DNA of 59,681 bases, from positions 1 through 59,681 of the IMG/VR virus record IMGVR_UViG_3300031787_000134. The stretch is one strand, 5' to 3'. Shown piece by piece: positions 4,427 to 59,681 of the stretch. Source of the DNA: a virus. Taxonomy: Duplodnaviria; Caudoviricetes. The position numbers and the translations under genes were made by a program. Position 1 is the stretch's first letter, and each line of letters starts with the position of its first letter. The notes beneath the pieces were generated by a model. The model had not been told where the DNA came from, searched no databases, and saw only the letters and a program-made list of their open reading frames with translations.

Positions 4427-6514
4427 ATGGCACAGATTAAGAAGAAATTCCTTGCCTCGAACGCCGTTGACGGTACTAAAGTCCAGTACTCGAACAACGA
4501 ATCGTTCCGGGCCAAATCCTCCTCGAACGTGGACGTCGAACTGTTCAAGCTCGACAACTCCAACATCTTCCAATTCTTGCAAATGCCAAGAGTTGGTTCC
4601 GACCCCAGTAACGGCAATGACGTTTCGCGTAAGTCTTACGTCGATGCTCAAGTTTTGGCTGAAGCTGCTTCCCGCGTCCAAGCTGACGCAGCTGAAACCG
4701 CAGCCCGCGAAGCGGCTATAGCTAGTGAAGCTGCCTCCCGTCAAGCTGCCGACGAGCAACTTGCCTCTGACTTGGCTGACGAATCTGCTGCTCGCGTAGC
4801 AGCAGTGTCTGCAGAGCAGTCCGCACGTGAGTCCGCTGACAGCGACCTCCAAGACGCTATCGACGCCGAAGAAGCGGCCCGCATCGCGGCAGTCTCTGCT
4901 GAAGAGTCTAGAGCTACCGCTGCTGAAGGCGTGCTCCAAGCGGCTATCACTGCTGAGCAATCCAGAGCCGAGGCCGCCGAGGCGGACCTCCAAGACCAAA
5001 TTGACGCCCTCGACACAGGCAATGCACAAGCTCTTGCCGATGAAGTTGCTGCTCGTATCGCTGCGGACTCCGTCCTCGACGGCAAAATCGAAACGGAAAA
5101 ATCCCGCATCGATGCCATCCTCCTCGCCTCCGACGCAGACAAAGATAGCTTTGCTGAAATCGTTAGCCTTATCAACAGTGTTGATACGACGAACGACACC
5201 GCCTTTGCTAGCTACGTCCTCAGCAATGACGCTGCCCTAGCTCAAGAAGTTAGTGACCGCCAAGCTGGCGACTCTGCTCTCCAGTCTTCGCTCGACAGCG
5301 AAGTCAGCCGCGCCACCGCTGCTGAAGAAACACTGCAAGACAATATTGACGCCGAAGAAGCTGCTAGAATTGCCGCTGTTTCTGCCGAACAGTCTGCTCG
5401 CGAAGCTGCTGACTCTGCTCTAGACAGCCGCCTCGACGTTTTGGAAGGAAGTGATGCTACCGAAGGTAGCGTTGCCAAAGCTGAAAAAGACGCTAAAGAT
5501 TACACCGATGCCGAAGTTTCTGCCGAGCAAGCCCGCGCCGAAGCTGCTGAAGCCGGACTTCAGTCCGCTATCGACAGTGAAGCAGCTCGTGCTACCGCAG
5601 CTGAAGGCGACCTCCAAGACGCGATTGACCAAGAAGTATCGGACCGCCAATCGGCTGTCTCGGGTGAAGAAGCTGCTCGGATGGCGGCTGACGCTGGTAT
5701 CCAATCCGAACTCGACGCTACCCAAGGTGGCGCCGGTCTAGGTGTAGACGGCGGCTATACGGCCCCAGTAGGTTCCTCCCACCTTGGCTCTGCAGTCAGC
5801 CTCAAAGATGCCGACAGCAAGCTAGACGCTGCTATCGTCGCTGAGAGCAATGCCCGACAAACCGCCGTCAGCAACCTCGAGCAAAGCATCTCCGACCTCG
5901 ACGCTGCTATGACCCAAGGCTTCGACGACGCTCAAGCTTACACGGACAGCAAAGTTGCTGCTCTTATTGACGGTGCCCCGGCCCTCCTTGACACCCTTAA
6001 CGAGCTAGCCGCCGCTATCGGTGACGACGAGAACTTTGCTGGCAACATCATGACCGCCGTCAGCAACGAAGCTGCTGCTCGTGCAGCTGCCGACACTGCT
6101 GAAGCTAGCGCCCGCGCTGCTGCTGATACCGACCTCCAAGACCAGTTGGATGCCGAAGAAGCCGCTAGAATTGCTGCCGTCTCTGCTGAGCAATCAGCAC
6201 GTGAAGCTGCTGACTCCCTCGAGTCTTCGACTCGAGTTGCCGAACTGCCCCGCCACGCTAAAGTCCGCTACACGCTGACCTCTACCGATATCAGCAACGG
6301 CTACGTCGACCTCGACCACGTTGCTCTGGGCTCCTCTTGCCACGTCTTCATTGACCGCCTGGCTTGCCACGAGTCTGATGACTACACCGTTTCGACGGTG
6401 GGTGGCGTAACCCGCGTTACTTTCTCCGCTGGCTTCATGTCTAGCGAAGAAGGTCCAGGCGAAGGTGACCTCTTCCGTTGCGGTTACATGTACAAAAATA
6501 GTGACCAACCGTAA
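4427..6514 (+). CDS. long coiled-coil fibre protein (head or tail fibre)
   Basis: Many Ala/Glu/Arg repeats (AEEAARIAAVSAEQSAREAADS); contains the fibre motif GAPALLDTLNELAAAIGDDENFA. Confidence 0.7.
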   Translation: MAQIKKKFLASNAVDGTKVQYSNNESFRAKSSSNVDVELFKLDNSNIFQFLQMPRVGSDPSNGNDVSRKSYVDAQVLAEAASRVQADAAETAAREAAIASEAASRQAADEQLASDLADESAARVAAVSAEQSARESADSDLQDAIDAEEAARIAAVSAEESRATAAEGVLQAAITAEQSRAEAAEADLQDQIDALDTGNAQALADEVAARIAADSVLDGKIETEKSRIDAILLASDADKDSFAEIVSLINSVDTTNDTAFASYVLSNDAALAQEVSDRQAGDSALQSSLDSEVSRATAAEETLQDNIDAEEAARIAAVSAEQSAREAADSALDSRLDVLEGSDATEGSVAKAEKDAKDYTDAEVSAEQARAEAAEAGLQSAIDSEAARATAAEGDLQDAIDQEVSDRQSAVSGEEAARMAADAGIQSELDATQGGAGLGVDGGYTAPVGSSHLGSAVSLKDADSKLDAAIVAESNARQTAVSNLEQSISDLDAAMTQGFDDAQAYTDSKVAALIDGAPALLDTLNELAAAIGDDENFAGNIMTAVSNEAAARAAADTAEASARAAADTDLQDQLDAEEAARIAAVSAEQSAREAADSLESSTRVAELPRHAKVRYTLTSTDISNGYVDLDHVALGSSCHVFIDRLACHESDDYTVSTVGGVTRVTFSAGFMSSEEGPGEGDLFRCGYMYKNSDQP

Positions 6515-14516: not shown

Positions 14517-14545
14517 TTGACATCCCCCTAGTCATGTGCTAATGT
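14517..14545 (+). promoter_or_regulatory. sigma70-type promoter
   Basis: TTGACA-17-TAATGT with TG extension. Confidence 0.55.
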
Positions 14546-14565
14546 CAACTAGACCGGAGGCTTGC

Positions 14566-16206
14566 ATGGCAGATACCATCTCAAGATATTTGAAGCTCAA
14601 AATCGCTGACGATTTGTCCGCCGATGCGAAATATAACCTCCAGCGTATTGACTCCCTTGGTGCTAGTATTGGGTCGACTTTTGTTACCGGGCTAGGTGAC
14701 AAGCTTAGTATCCTCTCCAGGGGAGACATCCAGCTAGTAGCCAATGACTCCTCTATCGGGGGCCCAGGTTCGGGTGGCACCATCACTTTAGGCGATAGTA
14801 GCAATCTTGCTACAGTCGTTATTGAAGGCGCCGCCTTTCGACTCAACTGTGGTCTCGGTCTCAAAAACGCGGCTACTTCCGCCAACAATTACTTGACCGT
14901 TTCCTTCTTGAACGCCGCCAACTTGACGACTCCCCAGTCTCTAACGATTGGGGTCGGGACCGGGAACCGCAGCATTACATTCCCTGAGGACGGGGTGGTA
15001 GTCACCTCCGACGCAACTCAGACCTTGACCAACAAGACCCTTTCTGGGGCAAGTAATACCCTGTCCAATATCGGATATTCGTCCCTCATTCTCACAAATA
15101 GTATTGTCAATGCGGATGTTTCCTCCTCCGCCGCCATCGCCACAAGTAAGCTCTCGGGCCCCCTGACAGCGGTAACTGGTAACGGACTCGGTACCCTCGC
15201 CACACAAAACACAGTCAGCCTCACTGCCGATGTGACTGGCATCCTACCCCCTGCTAATGGCGGCACCGGAACTGATGGTTCGGACAGAACAACTGCACTA
15301 CTAAACGTACTCCCGCTCCTGGCCGGGAATGAATCGGCCACCTTGCGTGTTAATCCGACCGGAACCGGTATCGAGTGGGTCGCTGGTGCGGGACAAGGAA
15401 CCGTCACCAGTGTCGGGATGGCGGTTCCCGCCGAGTGGATAGTTACTAGTAATGACATCGCGTCTCCTCCGTCTATTGACAGCGCAGGCACCTTTACTAT
15501 CACTAAAGCAGCCCAAGCAGCTAATACTATTTACTCTGCCCCGAACGGGACTAGCGGGGAGCCAACCTTCCGCTTCTTAGTTGAGGCCGATATCCCGAGC
15601 TTGGGACAAGGCAAGATTAGTAACCTTACTAGTGACTTGGCCGGGAAGCAAGCTACCATTACCGGGGCCGCTAGCACCATTACTGCTACTGACTTGACCG
15701 TTAGTCGGGCACTGCAGTCCGGTGCGTCGGGTAAAGTTGAAGTATCTACTGTCACATCTACCGAGCTCGGCTACTTATCAGGAGTAACATCCTCGATTCA
15801 GACGCAGCTCGGCAGCAAAGAGCCCACCATCACCGCCGGCACTACTAGCCAATACTGGAGAGGAGACAAGACGTGGTATTCTCCAGTAATTGACTCTACC
15901 GCCGGAAATGAGACGGACCAAGCCGCCAGCGTAGCCGCGATGAAATCATATGTCGGGTCGTACAGCGGCGGCTCATACGCCGCTGACTGGACTACCGGCA
16001 CCGCCATTACCTTAACCCACGGGCTAGGAAGCGAAGACGTTACTGTCAATGTTTACGATATGGACACCAAAAAGGAAATTTTAGTTGATGAAATCAATCG
16101 TGGGGATAGTAGCTCCCCAACTCCCCTTGACACAACAACTAAAGTAACCCTTACCGCTAGTGTAGCCCCCACCGGAAGCGGGTGGCGAGTTGTGGTTCGG
16201 AAGTAA
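14566..16206 (+). CDS. tail fibre/spike protein 1
   Basis: S/T/G/A-rich; TLTNKT, 'ELGYLSGVTSSIQTQL' and 'QYWRGDKTW' fibre repeats; GGAGG RBS. Confidence 0.75.
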   Translation: MADTISRYLKLKIADDLSADAKYNLQRIDSLGASIGSTFVTGLGDKLSILSRGDIQLVANDSSIGGPGSGGTITLGDSSNLATVVIEGAAFRLNCGLGLKNAATSANNYLTVSFLNAANLTTPQSLTIGVGTGNRSITFPEDGVVVTSDATQTLTNKTLSGASNTLSNIGYSSLILTNSIVNADVSSSAAIATSKLSGPLTAVTGNGLGTLATQNTVSLTADVTGILPPANGGTGTDGSDRTTALLNVLPLLAGNESATLRVNPTGTGIEWVAGAGQGTVTSVGMAVPAEWIVTSNDIASPPSIDSAGTFTITKAAQAANTIYSAPNGTSGEPTFRFLVEADIPSLGQGKISNLTSDLAGKQATITGAASTITATDLTVSRALQSGASGKVEVSTVTSTELGYLSGVTSSIQTQLGSKEPTITAGTTSQYWRGDKTWYSPVIDSTAGNETDQAASVAAMKSYVGSYSGGSYAADWTTGTAITLTHGLGSEDVTVNVYDMDTKKEILVDEINRGDSSSPTPLDTTTKVTLTASVAPTGSGWRVVVRK

Positions 16207-16294: not shown

Positions 16295-17101
16295 ATGTCA
16301 TTATCGACGCTTACCCGCTATCTTCGCTTGAGAGTGCGAACTGACCTCAGTTTACCGGCCAGCCAAAACCTCCAGAGGCTCGACCAGCTGGGCTTCTCTT
16401 TCGCGGTCGATGAGAATGACAACTTGGAAGTCCGGTCGAGGGGGAACCTCTCCCTTCGGCCCGAAGCATCCGAAGTCGGGGGAGCCGGCACCGGTGGTGA
16501 GGTTCATATCGGCTCATCGGCTCAGCCCTCAGTGGTCAAATTCTTCGCTAGCAGTTTCGAAGTAGCAGGGGGAGCCGGAAGCCTCCTCACCGAAGACAGC
16601 CTCAATACCGTTACTAACAAGTCAATCTCGGGCAGCAGTAACCTCTTAAGCAATATTGGCTACTCGTCACTACTGCTCAGCAACTCTATCAAAGGTAGTG
16701 ATATCGCGTCGGACGCTGCGATTCCCGACTCGAAACTGGCTACCATTTCCACTGCTGGTAAAGTCAACGTTTCCGCGCTGACCGGTTCCCTTTCAGGTAA
16801 CCTACTACCCAGCTACAGTAGTAATGACGGGAAGTACTTAAAGCTCGTCGATGGTGCCCTGTCGTGGGAAACCGCCGCCGGCGGCTCCGGCATGGAAGTC
16901 GCGAAGTCTGATTGGACGAGCGGGTCTTCTCTCACCGTTACTCATAACTTTGCCACGACCGACGTAGTCGTATCAATGTGGGACCTCGGCTCTGGCGAGC
17001 CGGTCTATACGGACAGTGTGACGAGGAACAGCAATTCGGTCGAACTCTCCGTTCCTGCCGGAACGTCGCCCAATTACCGAGTAGTCGTCGTCAAAGCATA
17101 A
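16295..17101 (+). CDS. tail fibre protein 2, shorter paralog of 14566-16206
   Basis: Shares N-terminus (RYLxL...NLQRxDxLG), 'LSNIGYSSL' and the C-terminal DWTxG...TH...RVVV domain. Confidence 0.75.
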   Translation: MSLSTLTRYLRLRVRTDLSLPASQNLQRLDQLGFSFAVDENDNLEVRSRGNLSLRPEASEVGGAGTGGEVHIGSSAQPSVVKFFASSFEVAGGAGSLLTEDSLNTVTNKSISGSSNLLSNIGYSSLLLSNSIKGSDIASDAAIPDSKLATISTAGKVNVSALTGSLSGNLLPSYSSNDGKYLKLVDGALSWETAAGGSGMEVAKSDWTSGSSLTVTHNFATTDVVVSMWDLGSGEPVYTDSVTRNSNSVELSVPAGTSPNYRVVVVKA

Positions 17102-17204: not shown

Positions 17205-20036
17205 ATGAAGTTGTTCGGAAGTCTACGTGAGTTAGTAGCGGCGGTATTCCGCAAAGACACAAGAGAAATTACCCTAGAGCCGAATGCTGGCACCTATTCT
17301 GGGGCGGTCAATCTCAAGTTGCCCCCAGTATTGACTGGAAGCGATGTTCTAGTTTCGGAAGCTGGAAGTCAATCTCTTACCAACAAGACCATCGATGCTG
17401 ACCTCAATACTGTAAGCAATATTGATGACGGCAATATCAAGGCCGGGGCCGGTATCGACGCGTCCAAAATTGGCGCTGGTTCCGTTGACAATACTGAATT
17501 TGGTTACCTTAACGGCGTCACGTCTAGTATACAGACTCAGCTCGGGGGCAAAGCTGCAAGTGGTGCGAACAGCGACATCACTTCCTTGTCCGGACTTACA
17601 ACTGCCTTGTCTACCGGACAGGGCGGTACCGGTGTCAACTCGACTGCTACCTTTCCCTCTTCCGGTGTGGTAGTAACTGAAGCCGGCTCTGCAACTTTGA
17701 CCAACAAAACTATCGACGGAGACAATAACACCGTTCAAGACTTGGGACTATCATCCCTTAAGACGGTATTGGCTGACGCGAACAAAGCCATCCTCCGAGA
17801 CGCGGCTGGTGCAGTGACCTCTGCTCTTATCGCGAACGCGAATATCTCTCCAACTGCCGCTATCGACGCCAGTAAAATCGGAGCAGGTTCGGTCGATAAC
17901 ACCGAGTTTGGCTACCTCAACGGCGTAACGTCCAGCATCCAAACCCAGCTCGGTGGCAAAGCGTCGAGCGGGGCCAATAGTGATATCACTTCCTTGTCCG
18001 GCTTGACAACAGCCCTGTCCATCGGACAAGGCGGTACCGGCCAAACCTCAGCTAGTGGCGCCATCAACGCCCTCTTGCCGCCTCAGGCTGCCAATTTCAA
18101 CAAGTACCTCAAAACAGATGGTACGAATGTTAGTTGGGCTTCTGCTTCTGGCGGAGCTGGGGAAATCAACGCCGTGTTGAACAGCAGTGGTGCGGACGGT
18201 ACTTCTGGCTGGGTCAATGGCACCTCTCACACCATCAATACCGTTACTGGGGCAACAATTCCCCTCTCACCAGCGGTGCCAACTGCGTTTACGATGTCGT
18301 CTTCGGCAGCGATTGCCATCGGGTCACAAACGAACGCTAGCGGTGATTACTACGAATTCACGATGCCGCCCGCGCTTCGGAATCGGAAGTTGAAGTTTGA
18401 ATTTTATTACACGACTCCAGCATCTGCTGATGGCACATGGGGCGTGGCTGTTTACAACGGCGCGACCAGAGTCAGACTCTCTACCGATACAGGCGCTACT
18501 CCAGATACCGTACTCCCGGCAGGGGTTAGCGGGGGCAAGTTTACTGCGTACTTCGACACCGATGCTGGCACCACGTACCGCGTCAACTTCGTCCAGAGGA
18601 CGAGAACCAACACCAACAGCTTGTGGGTAACTAATGTGGTGGTCGGACCCGGAATCCAACCTCAAGGTGCGGTTGTCGGAGCAGAAACTGTATATACTCC
18701 GACTACAACTGGTTTTGGTACAATCGGCTCTGCGACTGTCTATTATAAACGTGTTGGAGAAACGATTGTTATTCAGGGCCGATTTACATGCGGCACAACA
18801 GCTGCCTCATTGGCGTCGATTGCACTGCCGTCTGGACTAAATATTAACACCGCCATAATTACTCAAAACCTGATTGTGGGTAAGTGGTGGTTAAATAGCT
18901 CAACAACCAGCACACCAAAAACCGGCGCACTTTCTACCGACCGGACAGTAAATACCACGTTAGTTCGCTTTAACACACACGAGTACGCTACTACAACCCC
19001 ACCATCAGTTAACTTAAACGGCAGCCAAGTAGCTTCCACGGGGGAAGTTATTTGGTTTGAATTTCAGGCTCCCATCGCCGAATGGGCCGGCAGCGGAACG
19101 CTGACGGTAGCTCAGAATGATGTTGAGTACGCTTCAAACAGTAGCGCAACTACCACCAGCGACCCAACAACTTTTGCCTACGGCCCAAGTGGTACGTTGA
19201 TTCAAAACTTTGCTCCTACTGGATTAAACTTAATTGCCAAAAGAGTGAGGTTTCAAACTCCCATACAGCCAGGCGACCAAGTTATTGTAGAAGTTGATGA
19301 AGGAACAAATGGAGCAAGATGGGTTAATGCAGTTGCAAGAATTGGAAGCCGCGGCGTAAATAGTGCAGGTACAGCAGCTTACGGATTAAACTGGGTCACC
19401 ATAAACAGCACTGATGTTGATGTACAATTTGCCGCTACTTACGATGCTGCAGCTGCCGATACTTGGTCTACACTCAACACCTGGCGTTGGCGCGTCCGGA
19501 AATCCTCCGCCGGCGCGGCAGTCGGTTTTGGTATCGTCAGCCCCGGCGTATCCTCCGGTCTTGTCAGTGCAAGTGGATTGCCGGGGAACACCACCGGGAA
19601 CGCGATAGCAAGTGGGTATGTTGGGGAAGTTGCAAACCCATCTTCAGGCACAGGAGTTGCAGCACCTGGAGCAACTGGAGTATGGAAAACATACGAATCT
19701 ATTACTTTGACTGCCGGAGTGTGGATGGTTTGGGGTATGGGAGCTGTTTACTGGGACGGAACAAATAGCCCAACTGGTTTCAGTCAAGTTACCTTTGCCT
19801 TAACTCAATCCGTCAATGGTAATGCGGTTGGTGGTGCTGCCGGTTTATCTTTAAATTTAACAGGACAGGCCGTGACTAACAGTGGAATACAATTATCAGT
19901 TCCACCTTTGATAGTAAATACAAACGGAATCACAAACAATATTGTTTATATGTCAGCAAATTGTAGGTATACAACGCTAAATACTTTGGTGTTGGATTTA
20001 AACGCAACAACAATTTACGCAGTTCGGATAGCATAG
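17205..20036 (+). CDS. main tail fibre / receptor-binding protein (943 aa) with switchable C-terminal domain
   Basis: Fibre repeats (LTNKTID, GANSDITSLSGL); modular AT-richer distal domains; ends SGYVGE...AVRIA. Confidence 0.85.
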   Translation: MKLFGSLRELVAAVFRKDTREITLEPNAGTYSGAVNLKLPPVLTGSDVLVSEAGSQSLTNKTIDADLNTVSNIDDGNIKAGAGIDASKIGAGSVDNTEFGYLNGVTSSIQTQLGGKAASGANSDITSLSGLTTALSTGQGGTGVNSTATFPSSGVVVTEAGSATLTNKTIDGDNNTVQDLGLSSLKTVLADANKAILRDAAGAVTSALIANANISPTAAIDASKIGAGSVDNTEFGYLNGVTSSIQTQLGGKASSGANSDITSLSGLTTALSIGQGGTGQTSASGAINALLPPQAANFNKYLKTDGTNVSWASASGGAGEINAVLNSSGADGTSGWVNGTSHTINTVTGATIPLSPAVPTAFTMSSSAAIAIGSQTNASGDYYEFTMPPALRNRKLKFEFYYTTPASADGTWGVAVYNGATRVRLSTDTGATPDTVLPAGVSGGKFTAYFDTDAGTTYRVNFVQRTRTNTNSLWVTNVVVGPGIQPQGAVVGAETVYTPTTTGFGTIGSATVYYKRVGETIVIQGRFTCGTTAASLASIALPSGLNINTAIITQNLIVGKWWLNSSTTSTPKTGALSTDRTVNTTLVRFNTHEYATTTPPSVNLNGSQVASTGEVIWFEFQAPIAEWAGSGTLTVAQNDVEYASNSSATTTSDPTTFAYGPSGTLIQNFAPTGLNLIAKRVRFQTPIQPGDQVIVEVDEGTNGARWVNAVARIGSRGVNSAGTAAYGLNWVTINSTDVDVQFAATYDAAAADTWSTLNTWRWRVRKSSAGAAVGFGIVSPGVSSGLVSASGLPGNTTGNAIASGYVGEVANPSSGTGVAAPGATGVWKTYESITLTAGVWMVWGMGAVYWDGTNSPTGFSQVTFALTQSVNGNAVGGAAGLSLNLTGQAVTNSGIQLSVPPLIVNTNGITNNIVYMSANCRYTTLNTLVLDLNATTIYAVRIA
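17454..18042 (+). repeat. internal ~60-codon duplication in the tail fibre (copies start at 17454 and 17862)
   Basis: IDASKIGAGSVDNTEFGYLNGVTSSIQTQLGGKAxSGANSDITSLSGLTTALSxGQGGTG occurs twice, with mostly synonymous differences. Confidence 0.9.
19610..19628 (+). repeat. left 19-bp inverted repeat of putative invertible segment
   Basis: AAGTGGGTATGTTGGGGAA, exact reverse complement of 20513-20531; covers the SGYVGE codons. Confidence 0.9.
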
Positions 20037-20064
20037 TATCCGTAGTTACAACCGAACGAAGTTC

Positions 20065-20102
20065 GGGGGGTCCGCATCACTGCCGGCCCCCCTTCTTTGT
20101 TT
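20065..20102. terminator. terminator hairpin between the two convergent fibre tips
   Basis: GGGGGGTCCG...CGGCCCCCC followed by TTCTTTGTTT. Confidence 0.65.
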
Positions 20103-20125
20103 CATACGCTAATAATGTTTAAAGA

Positions 20126-20530
20126 TTAGGCGATTCTTACCGCTGTAACTGCCCAGACAGTAGAAGATGCGCTCACATTATTTACAGTGTACGCATTCAG
20201 ATATACCGTACCCGCCGCTGCAAATACTGCAACCATTGGAGGAAAGGTAGCGGTAGATGAGTTGGCTACGCTTCCCACCGCTGCAGTAATGTCGTTTACA
20301 CCCCCAACAGAACCGCCAATTTCAGAAAATGTCGAGACAGTTGCTCCGGTCGAACTTAAAATACGAGAATCGCCACCAGTTGCCCCAGACCACACAGCGT
20401 AACAACTGCCGCTAATTAGCCACACTCCTGCACTGGGGATAGACAAAGTACCGACCCCGCGTGTAGTATTTCCACCAGCTGCAATGCTATTGGTCCCACT
20501 TGCACGAAGTCGTTCCCCAACATACCCACT
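20126..20530 (-). CDS. silent alternative tail-fibre C-terminal domain (134 aa, no start of its own)
   Basis: SGYVGE...AGVWLISG...YLNA...AVRIA aligns by eye with the expressed tip SGYVGE...AGVWMVWG...YMSA...AVRIA; the upstream part of the track ORF is not protein-like. Confidence 0.85.
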   Translation of the reverse strand, partial: SGYVGERLRASGTNSIAAGGNTTRGVGTLSIPSAGVWLISGSCYAVWSGATGGDSRILSSTGATVSTFSEIGGSVGGVNDITAAVGSVANSSTATFPPMVAVFAAAGTVYLNAYTVNNVSASSTVWAVTAVRIA

Positions 20531-20531
20531 T
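20513..20531 (-). repeat. right 19-bp inverted repeat of putative invertible segment
   Basis: TTCCCCAACATACCCACTT on the + strand. Confidence 0.9.
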
Positions 20532-20668
20532 AGGACAAGTCGCCTCGCCACAAGGAGGGGGGGTTCCCCCTCGCTGCGCTCGGTAGTACGGTCTTCCCAG
20601 GCAGGCCTGGTAGTACGGGCTTGTCTTATTGCCAACCTCCTGCTACTCTAGTGAAGGAGGCACCTTGC

Positions 20669-21559
20669 ATGAAATTTTCCATTTTTCTTTTATTTTGGGT
20701 AATGTCATTCATTCGGACCCCCGTCCGAGTCTTCGCCCTGTTACTGGGTCTCCTGAGTACGGCAGCCTGTGGCCGGGAGATTCCGGCCGGACCAATCCTC
20801 ATCACCGAGCTGGAACAAATGTACGCGAGTAAACTCGCTCAGCTTCGTACGGAGACAGCCGGTCATATAGCGGGCTGGCCCGCCGATAATGAGTGCGACG
20901 GGGCTCTTTGGTCTGGTATCGCGCGAGCAGCTGGTGCGGAGTGGGTGGACGTCGCTGCCGCGCTCCGCCCCGACGGCCGCCCTACCAGGAAACCGTTGCG
21001 GGACTGCGTCACTCCGGACGAGAGTGCCACGACTACTAGCAACGACATGATAACGGGCATCCTCCTGGGCCTCCAAGAGGCTAAGGACGCCGAAAGCGTC
21101 CTGCGACTCTACAAATATGGAGAGGCGCATGACTGGATTATGGGCACCCCGGAGTGGTACCTCAGCAGAGTTCTGCTGAGGCCGAACGGCGTCACCCTTA
21201 TGGCCCGCATCCTATATAAGTTGACCGATGGGCAGCGTGACTACTCCGTCCGTCTCATGCCGGTAGTCTACGGTCCGGTAGACGGAGACTATGAGGGGCA
21301 TCTCCTCCTCCTCTCCCGCATCATCGAGAAAAAGGCTGGTGGACCCCAGTACGGGATGGAAGTAGCGGAGACTCTCTTCGCCAAAGCCAATCCCTCTGAC
21401 GCCTTAGCTCAGGCAGTAGCAGGTAACTACTTAGCAGCAGCCCTGCTACTGACTGGCGATTACAAGTCGCCGACATACGTTCGCGGCGACGACATCTACC
21501 ACACCGTGCATTGGCTCCTCGCAGCCCGGGTCACATTAGACGGGATGCTGGGAAAGTGA
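20669..21559 (+). CDS. putative lipoprotein, helical
   Basis: Hydrophobic stretch then lipobox-like STAAC; AAGGAGG RBS; TTGTCT-17-TACTCT upstream. Confidence 0.6.
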   Translation: MKFSIFLLFWVMSFIRTPVRVFALLLGLLSTAACGREIPAGPILITELEQMYASKLAQLRTETAGHIAGWPADNECDGALWSGIARAAGAEWVDVAAALRPDGRPTRKPLRDCVTPDESATTTSNDMITGILLGLQEAKDAESVLRLYKYGEAHDWIMGTPEWYLSRVLLRPNGVTLMARILYKLTDGQRDYSVRLMPVVYGPVDGDYEGHLLLLSRIIEKKAGGPQYGMEVAETLFAKANPSDALAQAVAGNYLAAALLLTGDYKSPTYVRGDDIYHTVHWLLAARVTLDGMLGK

Positions 21560-40599: not shown

Positions 40600-41055
40600 T
40601 TACCTCCGGTACCTGTTATCACGTAAGGTTCCCAACTGCTCACAATGAAGCAGCATTGCAAGGGTTGCACGAGCATGTCCAATATGGTGTAGCCCTGACT
40701 CGGGGTCGTATGTCTCCCCTCCGTTGTACGCGAATAGGTGGCGTAGTGCTGCGGCAGTGAGCCGGGATACTTCGAAACCGTTAGTGTAATTGTACCTGCC
40801 ATACTTCTTTTCTCCAAATCCCAAGGCTAAAGCTTCAGTTGATATCGCTATATAGGGAACGAGAGACAAGTCGGGTTTCCCATTGTCGTGTTTAGCTCCT
40901 TCCGCAGCCTTCGGGTCGGAGTGTTGCTTCATGTGGGATAGGGGGTCATTCATTACTTCCGTTACACCGGCAAAGATGTCGTTAGCGGGGAGGGGCTGGG
41001 CCCCGATACCGTACTGCTTCTTCGTCATTTCCCACTCCCAAGATTTCGGGTGCAT
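40600..41055 (-). CDS. dATP/dGTP diphosphohydrolase domain protein (DUF5664-like)
   Basis: KHDNGKP...GEKKYG..NY...RHL...DPESGLHHIGHA signature. Confidence 0.85.
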   Translation of the reverse strand: MHPKSWEWEMTKKQYGIGAQPLPANDIFAGVTEVMNDPLSHMKQHSDPKAAEGAKHDNGKPDLSLVPYIAISTEALALGFGEKKYGRYNYTNGFEVSRLTAAALRHLFAYNGGETYDPESGLHHIGHARATLAMLLHCEQLGTLRDNRYRR

Positions 41056-41647: not shown

Positions 41648-44125
41648 TTAAGTATCTGCTTTCCCATCAACTAAACAATCTAGGAACCACCGTGGTAGTA
41701 AGTGACTACCTTCGTTGTATAGTCTCATAAAGCTGCTATCCAAGCAATATGTTACTCCGTAATCCGCCTCGTGCCGCGACACCCGGCCCCCGGCCTGTAT
41801 CACAGTCTTCGCTGTCTCCCACAGATACCACTCGGGGTCCCGCTCTGCCAAAGCGGAGACCGCAGGGTCTCCAAGAGACGGCCAAGGAATCTTGGTGATG
41901 ACTTGCCAACGTCCCAAGTCGTCAGGCAAATCACATCCCTCGTACATCCCACTAGCGACAAGGATACTGCCCGGCGTGGTGAGATACCGTTGGTACATTT
42001 CTTTTTTGTTCTCTTTAGTGTGGAAGATGAACCTCCTATCGACAAGCTTACTCCGAAGGAGGTCGGCCATCTGATACGTGGCATGTACTAATCCCCGTTC
42101 GCCTTGGTGCCGCTCGAGCAGATGACTATTTATATAGTCAGCTATCACTTCGACTGACCGCTCCATATTGGCCCGGTTAACGGAGACAATGTCGTCCACT
42201 ATAAAAGGCCGCCGGTCGGGGGGAATCGGGGAGGGGCTATGCAAGTACGCCACCCGTTTGCCACTGAGGCCTAGGGTTTCGATATCCTTCGCTCCTATGG
42301 TTGCTGACAACAGTATCACCTTTGATACCTCCGATGGCCAAAGGCGCCGGGCTTCCTGCCCCACCTCAAGCGGAGTGAGCACAATGCAGTCCCGGTCCTC
42401 GGGCTCCCCGCGCTTCGTTCCCTTCCCATTAAATTCACGTACTGCCCTCGATACGCTATAAGCCGGGTGCCTACTCCGAAGAGTATCGAGGAGCTTCTCC
42501 ACCTTCACAGTCTTCTTCTTTTTGGGCGGGAGTCGCTCGGCCCAAGCTAGTAACTGCTCCCGACTGTATGCCGACGTGGGGTATAAATGGTCATGCCTCC
42601 ACAGAACTACTTCTCCCATACTACGGAGTGCTGGTATCAATTGGTGTGCTTCATCGACGATGAGGACATCTCGGTATAGGCGGTGGGCAAGGTAAGCATG
42701 GTACGTGTATACGCCCGGCCCCCGTCTGTACTTGGCTTGCGCTAGTTGTGTGCCGCAGGCGCAGCCCCTACAAAAGCCCTTCTTGATAGCGCGGACTTTA
42801 GCGCAAGGGAGCTGGCTATCCTCGCACCAATATGAGTCCAGCCGACGAAGAGTCGGCGTGTCCGGAAAGGTGGACAGGAACTGGTCGACTAGTTGATTGG
42901 TGGGGTTAATATACGAGGCGGAGTGCCCTGCTTTTAGCAGGGTCTTTGCAAGTGCGGACTTGCCTGTGTTGTGGGTTACTGTAAAATCTTCCATAAGGTA
43001 TAGATGGTTGCCGTCTAGTTCAAATCCAAAGTATTCTTGAACACCCAAATCTTCAACCTTTTTTATCCCGTCATTTCGTTGGTTTGATTTACTATTCAGT
43101 AGTGCTCCTCTCTTGTGTGGCACTAAGAGTGGTAGTTCGTTGACTCTTTGTGACGACATGTGAATACGATAATAGGGAGTACCTTTTATGACCTTTGTTT
43201 TTATCTTACCTACAGCAAATCCAAGACTGCGGGCAAGAAATACTACGTGTTGTATGAGTTTTAAATTTTTTTGGATAATCTCAATGGTTCCCATACCCGG
43301 CAGTACGTGTCCGTCGGTATCAACTAATCCAGCCAATAAAGCTAGACGACATTCGTAAGATGCAGTTAAGTACTGATGTGGAATATGCTTATTGTCTAAC
43401 ACGCCCAAGGAGCGAAGCTTATTTAAGATGGGATTTTTTTGTCCTCGAGGTACCGCGAGATGTCTGGTAATAGCTCGGTTATCTTGCTTTTTTTCGTCCC
43501 GAATCTTAAGGCCATATTCGTTTCCAATTTCTGCCCAATAGTCCAAGATAGTTGCATCCATATTCGTGACCGCCACTGTATTAGAAGAGCCATCTCCAAG
43601 CCAAGTTCCCAGAAAATATGGAGGAAGAGGAAGCTCTCCATCGCTTGGTCTAAAATCGATTCGTTCCGGCTTCCATAATTTAGTGCAATGCTTGTGGGAC
43701 TTAGAGGAGTTATTCCAATCAGATACAGTTTGCGTAATTAATTCATGTGTAAAATATCTGGGCGCTGGTCTGTTATATCCACCGTGTCGTTTGTAATATT
43801 GCAGGGACAGGATGTGATTATGTGTAACATCAAAGCTGGCCCCCCTGGTGGGGGTTACTCGCATCATTTTATCTCGGCCAGAAAATAGTTCTAGAACGGT
43901 GCGCGGTTTTGAGTCGGGTCCCATAAGCTGGTCACCAACTCGTATGTCCTCTACCGCGCGAAGTGTTCCGTCATACATGATGACCTTCTGTCCTCGGGCG
44001 TGACATGCAGTCGGAGCCACAATGACGAAGACATCGTAACGGTCCCACTGCTGCTCTAACAAAGTCAGAGTTTCTTTCTGAAAGTCCCGTATCACTTTGT
44101 ACGGGAAGTGTTTCAAGAGTTCCAC
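41648..44125 (-). CDS. DinG/Rad3-like SF2 helicase containing an intein
   Basis: Spliced Walker A APTA|TGKS, DEAH, SAT, EGCDLPDD, KIPWP, Q.xGR motifs. Confidence 0.9.
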   Translation of the reverse strand: MELLKHFPYKVIRDFQKETLTLLEQQWDRYDVFVIVAPTACHARGQKVIMYDGTLRAVEDIRVGDQLMGPDSKPRTVLELFSGRDKMMRVTPTRGASFDVTHNHILSLQYYKRHGGYNRPAPRYFTHELITQTVSDWNNSSKSHKHCTKLWKPERIDFRPSDGELPLPPYFLGTWLGDGSSNTVAVTNMDATILDYWAEIGNEYGLKIRDEKKQDNRAITRHLAVPRGQKNPILNKLRSLGVLDNKHIPHQYLTASYECRLALLAGLVDTDGHVLPGMGTIEIIQKNLKLIQHVVFLARSLGFAVGKIKTKVIKGTPYYRIHMSSQRVNELPLLVPHKRGALLNSKSNQRNDGIKKVEDLGVQEYFGFELDGNHLYLMEDFTVTHNTGKSALAKTLLKAGHSASYINPTNQLVDQFLSTFPDTPTLRRLDSYWCEDSQLPCAKVRAIKKGFCRGCACGTQLAQAKYRRGPGVYTYHAYLAHRLYRDVLIVDEAHQLIPALRSMGEVVLWRHDHLYPTSAYSREQLLAWAERLPPKKKKTVKVEKLLDTLRSRHPAYSVSRAVREFNGKGTKRGEPEDRDCIVLTPLEVGQEARRLWPSEVSKVILLSATIGAKDIETLGLSGKRVAYLHSPSPIPPDRRPFIVDDIVSVNRANMERSVEVIADYINSHLLERHQGERGLVHATYQMADLLRSKLVDRRFIFHTKENKKEMYQRYLTTPGSILVASGMYEGCDLPDDLGRWQVITKIPWPSLGDPAVSALAERDPEWYLWETAKTVIQAGGRVSRHEADYGVTYCLDSSFMRLYNEGSHLLPRWFLDCLVDGKADT
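42968..44005 (-). mobile_element. intein with LAGLIDADG homing endonuclease (346 aa) in the helicase P-loop
   Basis: Starts CHARG, ends THN, +1 Thr; FLGTWLGDG and LLAGLVDTDG blocks; AT-richer than the exteins. Confidence 0.92.
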
Positions 44126-48614: not shown

Positions 48615-48642
48615 TGTAACGGACACCGGTGGTGTCCTTTCC
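48615..48642 (-). repeat. dispersed hairpin element
   Basis: GGAAAGGACACC-ACC-GGTGTCCGTTACA. Confidence 0.85.
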
Positions 48643-48691
48643 GACTGGCACAAAGGGCTGACCGAAGGTCAAGCGACAACGCAGTTATCCG

Positions 48692-48940: not shown

Positions 48941-51900
48941 TTAGTCTTCTAGTTTAATGCCGGCCAAAGTCTTGGCCACTGCAGCACTGCCCTTTAATGG
49001 GCAAGTGCCTCCTAGTATTCTATTCAATTCTGCGTAGGCGTCCACTTCCATTATTCGCTTCGCCACTTCGACTTGCTCGTCTGGTACCTCGATGATACTT
49101 TCATCGTGCCAGTCCATCACGATGGGGGTCCACTGTATCTTAGCCTCAGTCAAAAGTTGAGCCGCAATTCTGGAGTATAACTGCAACAAATCGTGACCGG
49201 TACTTTGCACCTGGCGATTTAGTATATCTTTCAAGTACTTATCGTCTATGCAGATAGGGCGACCATACCCGTTTTCAATCCAACCACCATTCGCTCGCCA
49301 CTCATCGCGGAGCCAGTCCACGTAATTGAGGACGCCTTCTTTGGCGGCCATAAGAGAATTGTGCATCTCCTCCACTTCGTCGAGGGACATATCCACGCCG
49401 TTAAGGGAGAGTATCTTCTGTTTCTTCTTTACTCCCGAGCCGTAGTTATCCGATAGGATAAGGAGCTTCGCAATGCCGCGCTCCTTCTTGAACGCTTTCT
49501 TTGTTGCGTCCATCGCCTCGACCGAAGGATTGTACGGGTCATAGCCAAGCGACGTTAGCTTCGGTCCGATGCCCGCCATCATACTACCGTAGAACAAGTA
49601 GATGTCATTCTTCTTGGCGCCTGGCCCGTAGAGGGCGAGCAAGTTCTTATCTTGCGATAGCTCCGCAGTCACCACCATCTCCAAGGCATTCACATCACAG
49701 TCAACAAAGCTATGGCCGGGCCGACTAACAAAGCCCGAGAGGGTACCCCTAGTCTTGGGACACTGCGATGTCACGTAAGTACTCGTGCCCCGGCGCACTA
49801 ACAAATGTTCCGTTTCCACGCTAAGACAATAGACCATTCCATCATATGTCTGAGTAGCTACATGAGACTTCTTGTATTCCCGATGCGAGCCTTTTCGGAT
49901 GTATAAGGAGTAGGCTAGTGGTCTCTTGAACTTGCGGACCCCATACCCGTGGCGAACAAGCAATGCTTGGATAGAGTCAACAACGTCTTCGTGAATACAA
50001 GTAAATTCAAAGGCATCTTTAGTTGTGCCTCGCTTATGTCCATCCCAAAAGGATAGCGCTTCCACAAAAGTTTCTACTTGGTTATCCCCGAGAACAGACA
50101 AATCAAATTTCTTGTCGGCTGTCAATAGGGGATGTTCAAATTCAACGCGGTACCAAGAATGGACGCCTCTAGTACTGACGTGACTGGCGGGAATTCCAAC
50201 CAACTCCATAAACTTTTGTATCTTTCTGTCTCTCTTAAATCCGAACCGCCACATATAAGGATTCTTTACCCGCGCACTGGAGCCGTCAGCTTGGACAGCG
50301 GCGGCCATCCATATGTCGCGCTCACTGAAGAACGACTCGGTTGTGGTACTGGGACGGATGCTGGCATGCGCCATGCACTCCTTGGTTCGGAGCTTGTGAA
50401 TGTCGGATGCTGTTGTAGTAACCCGTCTGGTTCGTTCGGTTTCGGCGGCGTGCTGTAGGTCACCGATTAGTAATAGCCGGTGGTCTGGAGTTACAAGTAG
50501 CGGGGTGTTATTAGCCATCCCGATAGCGACCATATCCCCCGAGTAGTGTCTTTGTGTTGTGGCTTGGACAGGACCCCACTGACCAAACAATGTATCTGGT
50601 TGAATGGTCCAGACCAATTCACCTACTTGTAAATCCTTGATTAGTTTCCACCCAGACGGAGTTAGTGCTTCGGTATCGGGAGCAAAACACTGCTGCAGAT
50701 TGGGAGCCTTACCAGCCAGTCGTCCAGTCACAGTGCCGGGCATTTTGAAGGAGGGGTGTATCGTAGAGCGGTGCTCTACTCTCTCGACATAGTCCGAGAC
50801 ATAAGATAGTTCCTTCACCTTCAAGGCGCGCCCGATGAGGATGTGACCAACATCGCCCATCGACTGTAATGCGTCCTCACTAATGGCTGGCATCCCGCTC
50901 TCGGTTTGAAGCAAGACTTTGTGCTTCAGCTTCTCGTACATCAGCCACCGCAAGTGGTCTCCGGATTGCAAGTTGAACGAGTAGCCTGGCTCAATTCCGA
51001 GCTCTATCCTGTGGCGCTTGGCTTCCCAGTTTTGCCACACCTTACTTTCCTCAGGAAGCATAGCTTCTAGCGCAGCCCACTTCTCCCAGTTCTTGCTTAC
51101 CGTTACCCCGTCCTTTAAGAAGCGTGGTGGTTCCTTTCGTTCCTTCTTCTTCTTGTAGCGGGCCGGCTCCGTGGCGAGGAACTCCGCTACTTTGGCCTGC
51201 TCGAAAGCGCGGACGTGCGGGGCGACAAGTGCGTGCTCCCTAAACGTCTGTTCGCTGTCTGCAATCCCCGCCTCAAGCTCCGTTGCGTAGGCGGTCCAAT
51301 GCTTCCTGTCCGTCAGGATACCAGCAATCTTTTGGTCGATGTGTACCTTCACATGGGGAAGGAAGTCATTTCGGTGGTAATCGCCGAGTGCGGGGAACCG
51401 TTTCACGATAGGCAAGAGATGCTCTGTGTAGAGGAGGTATGTAGCCTCGGCATCGAGGACGCAGTACTTACCGAGTATCTCGGGAGGGGACCGCCACATC
51501 TCGCCCTTCATCGGTGCCTTGTTCTGTTTACAGTAGCCGTTACTGACCAACCACTCGTCTAGTTCAGTTTCATTGGTGTTGGTCCACATCAGAACGTCGA
51601 CCATCGCCTCTTTAAGACCCCACTTCTGGCCCTCCCAGCCTTCACTAGCGCATTGCATGTACAGGCCGAAGGTGCAGGCGAGCCAGTCGGAGTGGACGCC
51701 TAAGTCCCTCCGAATCCATCCCCCATCGAAGTAAACGTTATGGGCCAGCAAACCGCGGTGGATTAACAATAGGTCGGTCAGCTGTTGTATCGACTCGTCT
51801 GATAGTTGGTCCATCGACAGATAACAACTACCCTTGTCCCAAGACAAGCCGACGCCTACTACGTACGCTTCACTGTCGGGAAGGGAGTAATCGTTACCTC

Positions 51901-52075
51901 GTGTTTCGAAGTCTACTGCGACCACCGCTGCTTGGCTGGCTGACAGAAGTAACGCGGAGGTCTCCGTTTCGCTGGGGCATACAAGTTGATACGACCGACC
52001 CACCCTAGCAGGTGTGGGGCGGGGTTCCACGAGCACGAAGCGGGGATGGGTAGTCAATGTAACGTGGTCAGACAT
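48941..52075 (-). CDS. polA: family A DNA polymerase (3'-5' exonuclease + polymerase) containing an intein
   Basis: Exo motifs DFET, HNVYFD, YCVLD; TVTGRL, PNLQQ, motif A (DVNALE), B (R.IAK...NYG), C (HDE). Confidence 0.92.
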   Translation of the reverse strand: MSDHVTLTTHPRFVLVEPRPTPARVGRSYQLVCPSETETSALLLSASQAAVVAVDFETRGNDYSLPDSEAYVVGVGLSWDKGSCYLSMDQLSDESIQQLTDLLLIHRGLLAHNVYFDGGWIRRDLGVHSDWLACTFGLYMQCASEGWEGQKWGLKEAMVDVLMWTNTNETELDEWLVSNGYCKQNKAPMKGEMWRSPPEILGKYCVLDAEATYLLYTEHLLPIVKRFPALGDYHRNDFLPHVKVHIDQKIAGILTDRKHWTAYATELEAGIADSEQTFREHALVAPHVRAFEQAKVAEFLATEPARYKKKKERKEPPRFLKDGVTVSKNWEKWAALEAMLPEESKVWQNWEAKRHRIELGIEPGYSFNLQSGDHLRWLMYEKLKHKVLLQTESGMPAISEDALQSMGDVGHILIGRALKVKELSYVSDYVERVEHRSTIHPSFKMPGTVTGRLAGKAPNLQQCFAPDTEALTPSGWKLIKDLQVGELVWTIQPDTLFGQWGPVQATTQRHYSGDMVAIGMANNTPLLVTPDHRLLLIGDLQHAAETERTRRVTTTASDIHKLRTKECMAHASIRPSTTTESFFSERDIWMAAAVQADGSSARVKNPYMWRFGFKRDRKIQKFMELVGIPASHVSTRGVHSWYRVEFEHPLLTADKKFDLSVLGDNQVETFVEALSFWDGHKRGTTKDAFEFTCIHEDVVDSIQALLVRHGYGVRKFKRPLAYSLYIRKGSHREYKKSHVATQTYDGMVYCLSVETEHLLVRRGTSTYVTSQCPKTRGTLSGFVSRPGHSFVDCDVNALEMVVTAELSQDKNLLALYGPGAKKNDIYLFYGSMMAGIGPKLTSLGYDPYNPSVEAMDATKKAFKKERGIAKLLILSDNYGSGVKKKQKILSLNGVDMSLDEVEEMHNSLMAAKEGVLNYVDWLRDEWRANGGWIENGYGRPICIDDKYLKDILNRQVQSTGHDLLQLYSRIAAQLLTEAKIQWTPIVMDWHDESIIEVPDEQVEVAKRIMEVDAYAELNRILGGTCPLKGSAAVAKTLAGIKLED
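49763..50689 (-). mobile_element. intein (309 aa) with atypical Ser-Gln C-terminus and degenerate LAGLIDADG domain
   Basis: NLQQ|CFAPDTE...TPDH...VYCLSV...VTSQ|CPK; AAVQADG and LSFWDG blocks. Confidence 0.88.
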
Positions 52076-52084
52076 ATTAGCTCC

Positions 52085-52112
52085 TGTAACGGACAGCGGT
52101 GCTGTCCTTTCC
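52085..52112 (-). repeat. dispersed hairpin element directly 5' of the polA RBS
   Basis: GGAAAGGACAGC-ACC-GCTGTCCGTTACA then GGAG and ATG. Confidence 0.85.
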
Positions 52113-52310
52113 GGCGTGGTTGTTAAAGGCGCTCCACAAAGTATACTAGCATCAACAGCACTAGCGTAGCAGTAAGCACATACAACAAGCCAGTTAACAT
52201 CGACTCACCCCCACTAAACCACTTAAATATTAAGTACTTTACTCGTTGGTAGGAGCGTTCACGTAAGTAGTTCCCGCCAACGCTCCCGTCGGAGAGCTAA
52301 GGCACAAATA

Positions 52311-59312: not shown

Positions 59313-59340
59313 TGTATCGGACATCAAGGATGTCCTTTCC
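59313..59340 (-). repeat. dispersed hairpin element
   Basis: GGAAAGGACATC-CTT-GATGTCCGATACA. Confidence 0.85.
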
Positions 59341-59537
59341 GGCTTTTACCTGTTGTTGTACTGTACATAGTGAAAAGTAACTAGTGTTTCGGTTTCGGTT
59401 CGGGTTTAACTAACTCAGCCCGGATTCACCGCTTGTTAATTATTATGCACGTGCCGTGCCAATATTGGCTTGTTGTTTTTGTTGTTGTTTTTGCCCAATA
59501 CAGCGTCGACAGACTGGTCGGCGTCAATTAGTTAATT

Positions 59538-59681
59538 GACGGGTCAGCTACCGCGACGGGTCAGCTACCGCGACGGGTCAGCTACCGCGACGGGTCAGCT
59601 ACCGCGACGGGTCAGCTACCGCGACGGGTCAGCTACCGCGACGGGTCAGCTACCGCGACGGGTCAGCTACCGCGACGGGTC
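59538..59681. repeat. perfect 17-bp tandem repeat (GACGGGTCAGCTACCGC) x8 plus a partial unit continuing into positions 1-7
   Basis: Eight identical units, then GACGGGTC; the window starts with AGCTACC. Confidence 0.95.

Follow-up and report, generated by a model that had tools for sequence, protein, structure and literature searches.

A reversed second fibre tip and a perfect inverted repeat at the neck/tip junction of a metagenomic phage tail fibre

Two facing fibre tips and an in-frame inverted repeat

The stretch of DNA analysed here (the window) is the full 59,681 bp of the IMG/VR virus record IMGVR_UViG_3300031787_000134, and the element in question lies at the 3′ end of a tail-fibre gene. 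The C-terminal tip of the fibre (tip A) is faced, on the opposite strand, by a second version of the same domain (tip B), which is held as an intact cassette within a minus-strand open reading frame (ORF) at 20126-20635. The coordinates of the features are collected in Table 1. The fibre ORF itself matched no Pfam family.

Both tips begin with one arm of a perfect 19-bp inverted repeat, AAGTGGGTATGTTGGGGAA. Exactly two copies of this 19-mer occur in the window, inverted relative to each other, with no further copy at up to three mismatches, and two matches were found in none of 100 shuffled sequences. The window contains 21 inverted pairs that are 18 nt or longer, and of these the 19-mer pair alone is 100% complementary; a search of IMG/VR found no other exact copy of the 19-mer. 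In both arms the first A occupies a third codon position and is followed by AGT GGG TAT GTT GGG GAA, the codons for SGYVGE. Since the arms share this codon register, inversion of positions 19610-20531 would join the neck of the fibre and tip B in frame.

Beyond the edges of the 19-mer, DNA identity between the two tips collapses immediately. At the protein level 45 of 127 aligned residues are identical (35%), and BLASTP aligned the first 50 residues alone (E = 6 × 10−4). Between the two stop codons lies a terminator-like hairpin with a predicted folding energy of −28.9 kcal/mol (z = −2.68 on the plus strand and −1.12 on the minus strand), which was not among the sites listed by a simple terminator scan. 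The preliminary description of this DNA had proposed a perfect in-frame 19-bp repeat at the boundary of constant and variable parts, a highly diverged convergent second tip, a terminator hairpin between the stops, and a 922-bp segment whose inversion would fuse the alternative tip in frame. All four are borne out by these data.

Table 1. Features at the fibre locus, with positions in the window
Feature	Position	Strand	Remarks
Tail-fibre gene, 943 aa	17205-20036	+	ORF; neck ends ...GLPGNTTGNAIASGYVGE, followed by tip A
Repeat left arm, perfect 19 bp	19610-19628	+	spans the SGYVGE codons at the neck/tip boundary
Tip A, 141 aa	19611-20033	+	expressed C-terminal tip
Hairpin, G+C-rich, terminator-like	20065-20102	+	GGGGGG...CCCCCC with TTCTTTGTTT tail, between the two stops
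Tip B cassette, intact	20126-20530	-	134 codons from SGYVGE to AVRIA plus TAA stop; tip B coding 20530-20129
Repeat right arm	20513-20531	-	codon register as in the left arm
In-frame GTG, sole candidate start near the cassette	20549-20551	-	7 codons before SGYVGE; gives MARRLVLSGYVGE
Hairpin, perfect 7-bp G/C stem	20556-20572	.	GAGGGGG-loop-CCCCCTC, just beyond the right arm
GGTAGTACGG, two exact copies 27 nt apart	20582-20618	+	spacer between right arm and next gene
Next gene (right border)	20669-21559	+	AAGGAGG 8 nt 5′ of ATG; lipoprotein-like N-terminus

The neck/tip junction in the fibre family

A profile built from tips A and B was searched against 1.84 billion representative proteins. 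It returned 16 proteins, one of which was the window's own ORF; another, P0006, was set aside as a low-complexity repeat protein. In all 14 informative matches, seven long fibres and seven short proteins of 151-188 residues, the domain stood at the extreme C-terminus and ended in A[VI]RIA. When IMG/VR was searched with the A + B profile and with a B-type profile, 24 and 22 candidate stretches were obtained, respectively, and none was confirmed.

The fibre family is much larger than the set of proteins that carry these tips. With fibre residues 610-943 as the query, 254 proteins were found at E ≤ 1 × 10−5, and in 89 of the 136 examined the motif G[YF][VI]G[EQ] lay 110-155 residues before a C-terminus ending in R[IV][AG]. 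A conserved neck (...GLPGNTTGNAIASGYVGE) precedes the motif and unrelated sequence follows it. These alignments place the boundary between neck and tip at SGYVGE, in a large fibre family whose tips are hypervariable.

Two sets of relatives point to exchange of tips between lineages exactly at this boundary. The neck of P0017 matches that of the window at 176 of 186 positions over its last 180 residues (94.6-97% identity). Directly after SGYVGE, however, P0017 carries a tip that is identical to tip B at 106 of 134 positions (79%) and to tip A at 44 of 128 (34%). The fusion of this neck to a B-type tip means that the product expected from inversion has a natural counterpart. In a second pair, P0002 and P0016 have a common neck, with an A-type tip on the former (69% identical to tip A) and a B-type tip on the latter, and their alignment stops just past GY[VI]GE.

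The junction is also conserved at the nucleotide level. From the codon usage of the window, six identical codons and one further base would be expected by chance with P ≈ 2 × 10−4. One of seven other SGYVGE-bearing relatives, L008, which is 44% identical in the region, nevertheless has all six junction codons the same as in the window. Across 19 non-redundant fibres of the family, the junction codons were GGG in 16 of 19, TAT in 15 of 17 and AGT in 7 of 9 cases, against gene backgrounds of 0.15, 0.50 and 0.17, while neighbouring conserved neck positions each used three or four codons. Because the junction codons are conserved as nucleotides across the family, a perfect repeat is less improbable than it seems, and on sequence grounds it can arise through descent from the neck/tip junction. 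The synonymous conservation at AGT GGG TAT could reflect crossing over at this site, pausing of translation or another cause.

The comparison covered 46 loci, among which two contigs are represented twice (L002/L034 and L003/L035). A broad tip profile identified 26 tip-bearing ORFs outside the window. All except one form the ends of long ORFs on the strand of the fibre (25 of 26), and the remaining one, in L007, is a stand-alone gene on the same strand, with a product 65% identical to tip B.

The tips differ in composition as well as in sequence. Past the repeat, tip A (19629-20033) has a G+C content (GC) of 42.0% and a third-position GC (GC3) of 28.9%, whereas tip B has 51.0% and 36.7%, the neck 51.2% and 42.9%, and the genome a GC of 51.9%. 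Tip A seems to have been acquired recently, because its GC departs from that of the genome. From composition, the expressed tip A looks like the newcomer and the reversed tip B like the resident, as in P0017.

An AlphaFold model of tip B (predicted local distance difference test score, pLDDT, 78.8; predicted template modelling score, pTM, 0.76) adopts a C1q/TNF-like jelly roll. Foldseek matched it with a probability of 1.00 to ExsFA, C1QL3, BclA and 9k09_A, a chain of the cyanophage A4 portal-tail complex; these solved-structure matches had E-values of 7 × 10−6 to 2 × 10−4 and query-normalized template modelling (TM) scores of 0.5-0.6. Against fibre proteins of uncultured phages, the TM scores rose to 0.7-0.75. 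Both tips are predicted to be C1q/TNF-like jelly-roll heads of the trimeric type. The jelly-roll fold is common to tip B and to the heads of BclA and ExsFA of the Bacillus exosporium, of C1QL3 and of the cyanophage A4 chain, but sequence identity of the tips to these is just 10-23%, and the tips belong to no Pfam family.

Orientation, recombinases and translation of the second tip

Orientation was read from the contigs of four runs and from called proteins, a form of evidence that captures majority forms only and misses a minority below ~10%. In X1 (depth 11) and X3 (depth 75), positions 18800-21400 lay within one contig each, with no joints and no loose ends. In X5 and X7 the right arm was bridged in the reference form. 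Around the left arm, within 19598-19638, a contig of X7 ended at 19628, the last base of the arm, and the next started at 19608, 2 nt outside it, with nine arm-spanning 31-mers missing; X5 had no cover at 19568-19659. These two breaks are ambiguous. Either could be a branch in the assembly graph or an effect of the low local depth (3-6), and with the right arm intact in X5 as in X7 they were counted neither for nor against inversion. The exact fibre was found on 8 contig records and the exact minus-strand ORF on 8 + 5, being identical in all 13. Long proteins with the tip B type of this phage were limited to P0017, and no short protein carried tip A. A chimeric assembly was ruled out, as both junctions lie within single long contigs of two campaigns and also in JGI, ENA and Logan assemblies.

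In a search of the six frames of the record, which some other contigs of this phage exceed by up to ~0.5 kb, the serine (PF00239), tyrosine (PF00589), DEDD/IS110 (PF01548) and large-serine (PF07508) recombinase families gave no match at E ≤ 1. Nor was any recombinase family found in 49 ORFs searched with Pfam or in 10 searched with PHROGs; the only nuclease-type matches there were an endonuclease VII/HNH protein, a RuvC-like resolvase and a weak PD-(D/E)XK match. Two ORFs of invertase size without an assigned function gave no recombinase lead in an Atlas search. The absence of serine and tyrosine recombinases, which had been asserted from the sequence alone, was upheld and extends to the other two families. 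A diversity-generating retroelement was also considered and rejected: the 49 ORFs contained no reverse-transcriptase family, and the tips are 35% identical and in inverted orientation.

Two candidate starts for a separate tip B product were considered. The TTG at 20635 abuts AGGAGG without a spacer and is not a credible start. The in-frame GTG at 20551 would give a product of 141 residues; it lies inside a hairpin stem, and the only Shine-Dalgarno-like run, GAGGGGG, is 14 nt upstream. A clear Shine-Dalgarno sequence is, however, absent from about half of the genes of this phage, and a weak promoter-like site is present on the minus strand at 20708-20681. Tip B is the sole minus-strand ORF of at least 90 residues in the interval 841-39313 that does not shadow a plus-strand gene.

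Stand-alone homologues provide a comparison. Five of the short proteins have a common leader, MxxK...GDGTA.PAGY, and the window cassette is without this neck-like leader of ~12 residues. In L007 (5920-6399), a B-type tip forms a separate gene of 150/159 residues on the strand of the fibre, 120 nt after a fibre bearing another tip type. AAGGAG stands 8 nt 5′ of its ATG, and no inverted repeat was found at this locus, which is the only stand-alone homologue whose DNA was read. The gene is followed in L007 by a fibre with a peptidase-S74-like chaperone end, the S74 likeness being judged by eye.

The preliminary description had held that the second tip has no credible start and is silent. The first claim stands for the TTG but is weakened by the GTG, which exists in frame and is poor. 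The second appears likely, given the absent leader and the position of the GTG in a hairpin, and is qualified by the stand-alone homologues that have a strong ribosome-binding site.

A spacer of 137 nt (61% GC) separates the right arm from the next gene, which marks the right border of the locus. The duplicated GGTAGTACGG in this spacer was examined as a possible repeated phage signal and rejected, since it is not enriched in the window (five matches at one mismatch; at least five in 17 of 100 shuffles). L001, a relative without the cassette, has a likely counterpart of gene 20669-21559 downstream of its fibre, matched by eye on translations. Within the fibre shaft, a 185-nt internal duplication (17448-17632 and 17856-18040, 78% identical) encodes a repeat, ...IDASKIGAGSVDNTEFGYLNGVTSSIQTQLGGKA..., that occurs twice in the protein. 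The fibre gene is the last of three consecutive fibre-like genes (14536-16206, 16295-17101 and 17205-20036), of which the first two have a common N-terminal RYL[KR]L[KR]...NLQR[IL]D motif; a similar set is found in L001. A fourth tail-fibre-like protein, with coiled-coil repeats, is encoded at 4427-6514.

The window is an entire IMG/VR virus record, with a completeness of 100% by CheckV. No end repeats were found on the 59,681-bp record, and some other contigs of the same phage are up to ~0.5 kb longer. A 17-nt unit, GACGGGTCAGCTACCGC, is repeated in tandem at 59521-59681 and reaches the right end of the record, which is probably why assemblies end here. All genes at 841-39313 lie on the plus strand, including those for terminase, a P22/SU10-type portal, an SU10-type adaptor and several fibre-like proteins, and the minus strand carries the replication genes, including a helicase and a family-A DNA polymerase. 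An integrase is absent, and the phage appears to be virulent. Freshwater and 'fungus' metagenomes are the labels of the runs in which the stretch was found. Among cultured phages there was no match for tip B or for the portal, and the match of the fibre, to a Pelagibacter phage, was confined to 16% of its length. In bacterial genomes, the fibre neck matched a single metagenome-assembled-genome contig, which provided neither a prophage context nor a clue to the host.

Several further observations lie outside the fibre locus. The helicase and the polymerase (41648-44125 and 48941-52075, both on the minus strand) each bear an intein, the former with Hint and LAGLIDADG homing-endonuclease domains and the latter with Hint/intein-splicing domains. 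The ORF at 40600-41055 (minus strand) matched the N-terminal domain of dATP/dGTP diphosphohydrolase (E = 1.6 × 10−26). A 2-aminoadenine (Z) genome, an idea raised by this domain, is not indicated, because the record is without a PurZ-like adenylosuccinate-synthetase match (PF00709). A hairpin-containing motif, TGTAACGGACAnnnnnTGTCCTTTCCGGC, occurs in the replication-gene region at 48615-48645, 52085-52115 and 59313-59343, with three weaker copies, and may be a phage promoter or terminator signal.

Readings of the locus and comparison with known systems

The reading that we favour, to which we give about an even chance, is that tip B is an archived silent tip kept at the swap junction of the family, and that it could be swapped back only by a rare, homology-driven inversion. 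The minus-strand element would be an untranslated spare tip, probably the former tip of this lineage, held in reverse behind a fibre gene that now bears a recently acquired one. The copies of the junction codons form the 19-bp inverted repeat, so that crossing over between the two would turn the 922-bp segment around and bring tip B in frame with the neck. We infer that the present layout is itself a product of recombination at the junction. Any re-swap would be rare, driven by homology and followed by selection, as opposed to a programmed, enzyme-driven and frequent switch. It could be carried out by host RecA-type recombination, or by the RuvC-like resolvase, the PD-(D/E)XK nuclease or the endonuclease VII-like enzyme of the phage.

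A number of points weigh against this reading. A repeat of 19 bp is short for homologous recombination, and its perfection may stem from the family-wide nucleotide conservation of the junction and not from use here. A reversed tip cassette was found in none of the 26 tip-bearing ORFs of related loci, so that the arrangement is unique, and at the other junctions of the family the longest inverted match within 6 kb did not exceed 12 nt. The inverted junction appeared in no contig of the four runs, and ~15 billion proteins included neither a fused-B nor a silent-A form from this phage. The sequences compared offer no worked-out path by which tip B became reversed. Finally, silence of the cassette is likely but unproven: elsewhere this kind of tip is found as a separate gene with a strong ribosome-binding site, and the GTG at 20551 would give M-A-R-R, similar to the MAK[QR] and MANK starts of stand-alone homologues.

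These last observations also fit the reading that tip B is an independent gene, encoding a stand-alone C1q-like tip protein of ~141 residues that starts at GTG 20551 and is transcribed from the divergent spacer, with the repeat as a by-product of the junction. We consider this rather unlikely. Half of the informative tip matches (7 of 14) are short proteins of 151-188 residues with the domain at the C-terminus, five of them sharing an MxxK...GDG-type start, and the MARR... start resembles their MAKQ, MAKR and MANK. The B-type gene of L007 has its AAGGAG 8 nt before ATG, the ORF in the window is intact with all family motifs kept, and the junction identity is not rare, being found in one of seven relatives. 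The frequent lack of a clear Shine-Dalgarno sequence in this phage and the promoter-like site at 20708-20681 also fit such a gene. However, the leader of the stand-alone forms (G.GDGTA.PAGY) is absent, the GTG is base-paired in a hairpin with its Shine-Dalgarno-like run 14 nt off, and the gene would be the lone minus-strand gene in a 38-kb plus-strand block. Homology to the fibre moreover sets in precisely with the repeat, whose 19th base, additional to the six codons, is shared as well. A further possibility, that tip B is a dead relic, a 3′ fragment displaced by a past tip replacement that is not expressed, was never swapped back and has so far not decayed, appears very unlikely to us. The lack of a start and of a recombinase, the single orientation everywhere and the uniqueness of the arrangement among relatives would suit a relic, and relaxed constraint could be reflected in a tip only 79% identical to that of P0017 where the necks are ~95% identical. 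Yet the 134 codons are open through the exact C-terminus of the family, AVRIA, the ORF is identical in 13 contig records and its copy of the junction is without a mismatch. Where the tip departs from P0017 and P0003, the changes are, by eye, mostly conservative and spare the family motifs.

A programmed invertible segment, in which the 19-mer is the site for a host-encoded or unrecognized phage recombinase and the population switches between tip A and tip B, is improbable in our view. The anatomy matches the G segment of Mu and the C segment of P1 in that in-frame repeats mark the boundary of constant and variable parts, and the synonymous sites of AGT GGG TAT, far more conserved than neighbouring neck codons, would fit a site read as DNA. 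The left-arm contig breaks in X7 and X5 could be taken in its favour, with the ambiguity that comes with a depth of 3-6. The introduction of PMC9881135 refers to invertible regions that have no recombinase close by. On the other hand, no recombinase of the four families was found in six frames and none in the scanned ORFs, and none of the four runs contained a joint, a loose end or an inverted contig, the right arm being in the reference form in all of them. Inverted-form proteins numbered 0, compared with 8 and 13 reference-form contig records, and the 19-mer has, by eye, no internal dyad symmetry. Active switching, which had been suggested earlier for this locus, thus failed to find support in the assemblies, and so did the expectation that the repeat would be kept in relatives with divergent tips, since neither repeat nor reversed cassette is present in the related loci.

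A broader possibility, which we regard as improbable, is that the whole fibre family exchanges receptor-binding tips without a dedicated invertase by using AGTGGGTATGT, a motif inside the 19-mer, as a portable site of crossover, the second tip having been captured here in reverse. Such a site would explain why the synonymous positions are conserved in most relatives while neighbouring neck codons drift. General recombination enzymes or a host factor would then switch host range through a reversible inversion, and the locus would be a recombinase-free counterpart of the Mu G segment.

If the favoured reading is correct, a virulent freshwater phage that stores a reversed tip, joined to its fibre by the junction codons alone, would show that spare host-range modules can be kept in store, and perhaps called on again, with no machinery dedicated to the task. 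The family picture, with its conserved neck, nucleotide-conserved boundary and hypervariable C1q-like tips, is useful even if the copy in the window never flips: the same neck with different tips in close relatives marks a natural point of tip exchange, at which host range may be read. Should the cassette prove to be a stand-alone protein, the question turns to the role of free tip heads.

Invertible tail-fibre segments include the G segment of Mu (Gin/gix), the C segment of P1 (Cin/cix), e14 (Pin) and carotovoricin. To our knowledge, such switches occur in temperate phages and tailocins, each with its own invertase. In common with them, the window has in-frame inverted repeats where a constant fibre part gives way to alternative C-termini, and a second part, encoded on the other strand, that has no convincing expression signals of its own and whose inversion would alter receptor specificity. 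It differs in that the record has no serine invertase and the segment no tail-fibre assembly gene, and in that the phage lacks an integrase, looks virulent and was observed in a single orientation. The 19-bp repeat is presumably also unlike gix. Because no invertase was found, the element does not belong to the Mu G-segment family, although the anatomy is alike.

The shufflon of R64 type uses the tyrosine recombinase Rci and 19-bp sfx repeats to vary the tips of pilV. Here too, 19-bp repeats lie at the constant/variable boundary of an adhesin tip and the alternative C-terminus is probably silent, whereas the window has no tyrosine recombinase and one cassette in place of several. In Neisseria, antigenic variation draws on silent cassettes (pilE/pilS). 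For mba/UU172 of Ureaplasma, inversions at short repeats, with distant Xer-type recombinases, are reported in PMC3047005 and PMC3599477. These two systems pair an expressed locus with a promoter-less variant copy, recombined by general or distant host enzymes, as the window would on the favoured reading, but they are cellular and have many cassettes or known candidate recombinases, whereas the window holds a single phage cassette. The Mu segment is cited in PMC9881135 and PMC13501310, and the shufflon is discussed in the former. A cyanophage genome-isomer preprint (10.64898/2026.02.14.705889) was set aside as not comparable, since it concerns an inversion of 30 kb. At the level of titles and abstracts, no account was found of a virulent phage that keeps a silent fibre tip in reverse and lacks an invertase.

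By analogy, the element appears closest in logic to the orphan variable modules of cdiA and rhs, turned around. Orphan C-terminal modules sit downstream of cdiA and rhs genes. They are displaced, start-less 3′ fragments that encode an alternative variable tip behind a full-length gene, and they retain a short conserved motif ahead of the variable part that can serve as a homologous crossover point. Tip B would resemble them in this: its homology sets in at SGYVGE and the leader of stand-alone forms is absent, with the weak in-frame GTG 7 codons upstream as a reservation. A further trait of such modules, relatives in which the constant region is fused to the tip type of the orphan, is found here in P0017 and in the pair P0002/P0016. 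The cdiA and rhs orphans, however, lie in direct orientation, their swap is a deletion or duplication, and immunity genes are present, whereas the module in the window is inverted and the protein is a phage receptor-binding tip. With this inverted orientation, a swap would be reversible and nothing would be lost.

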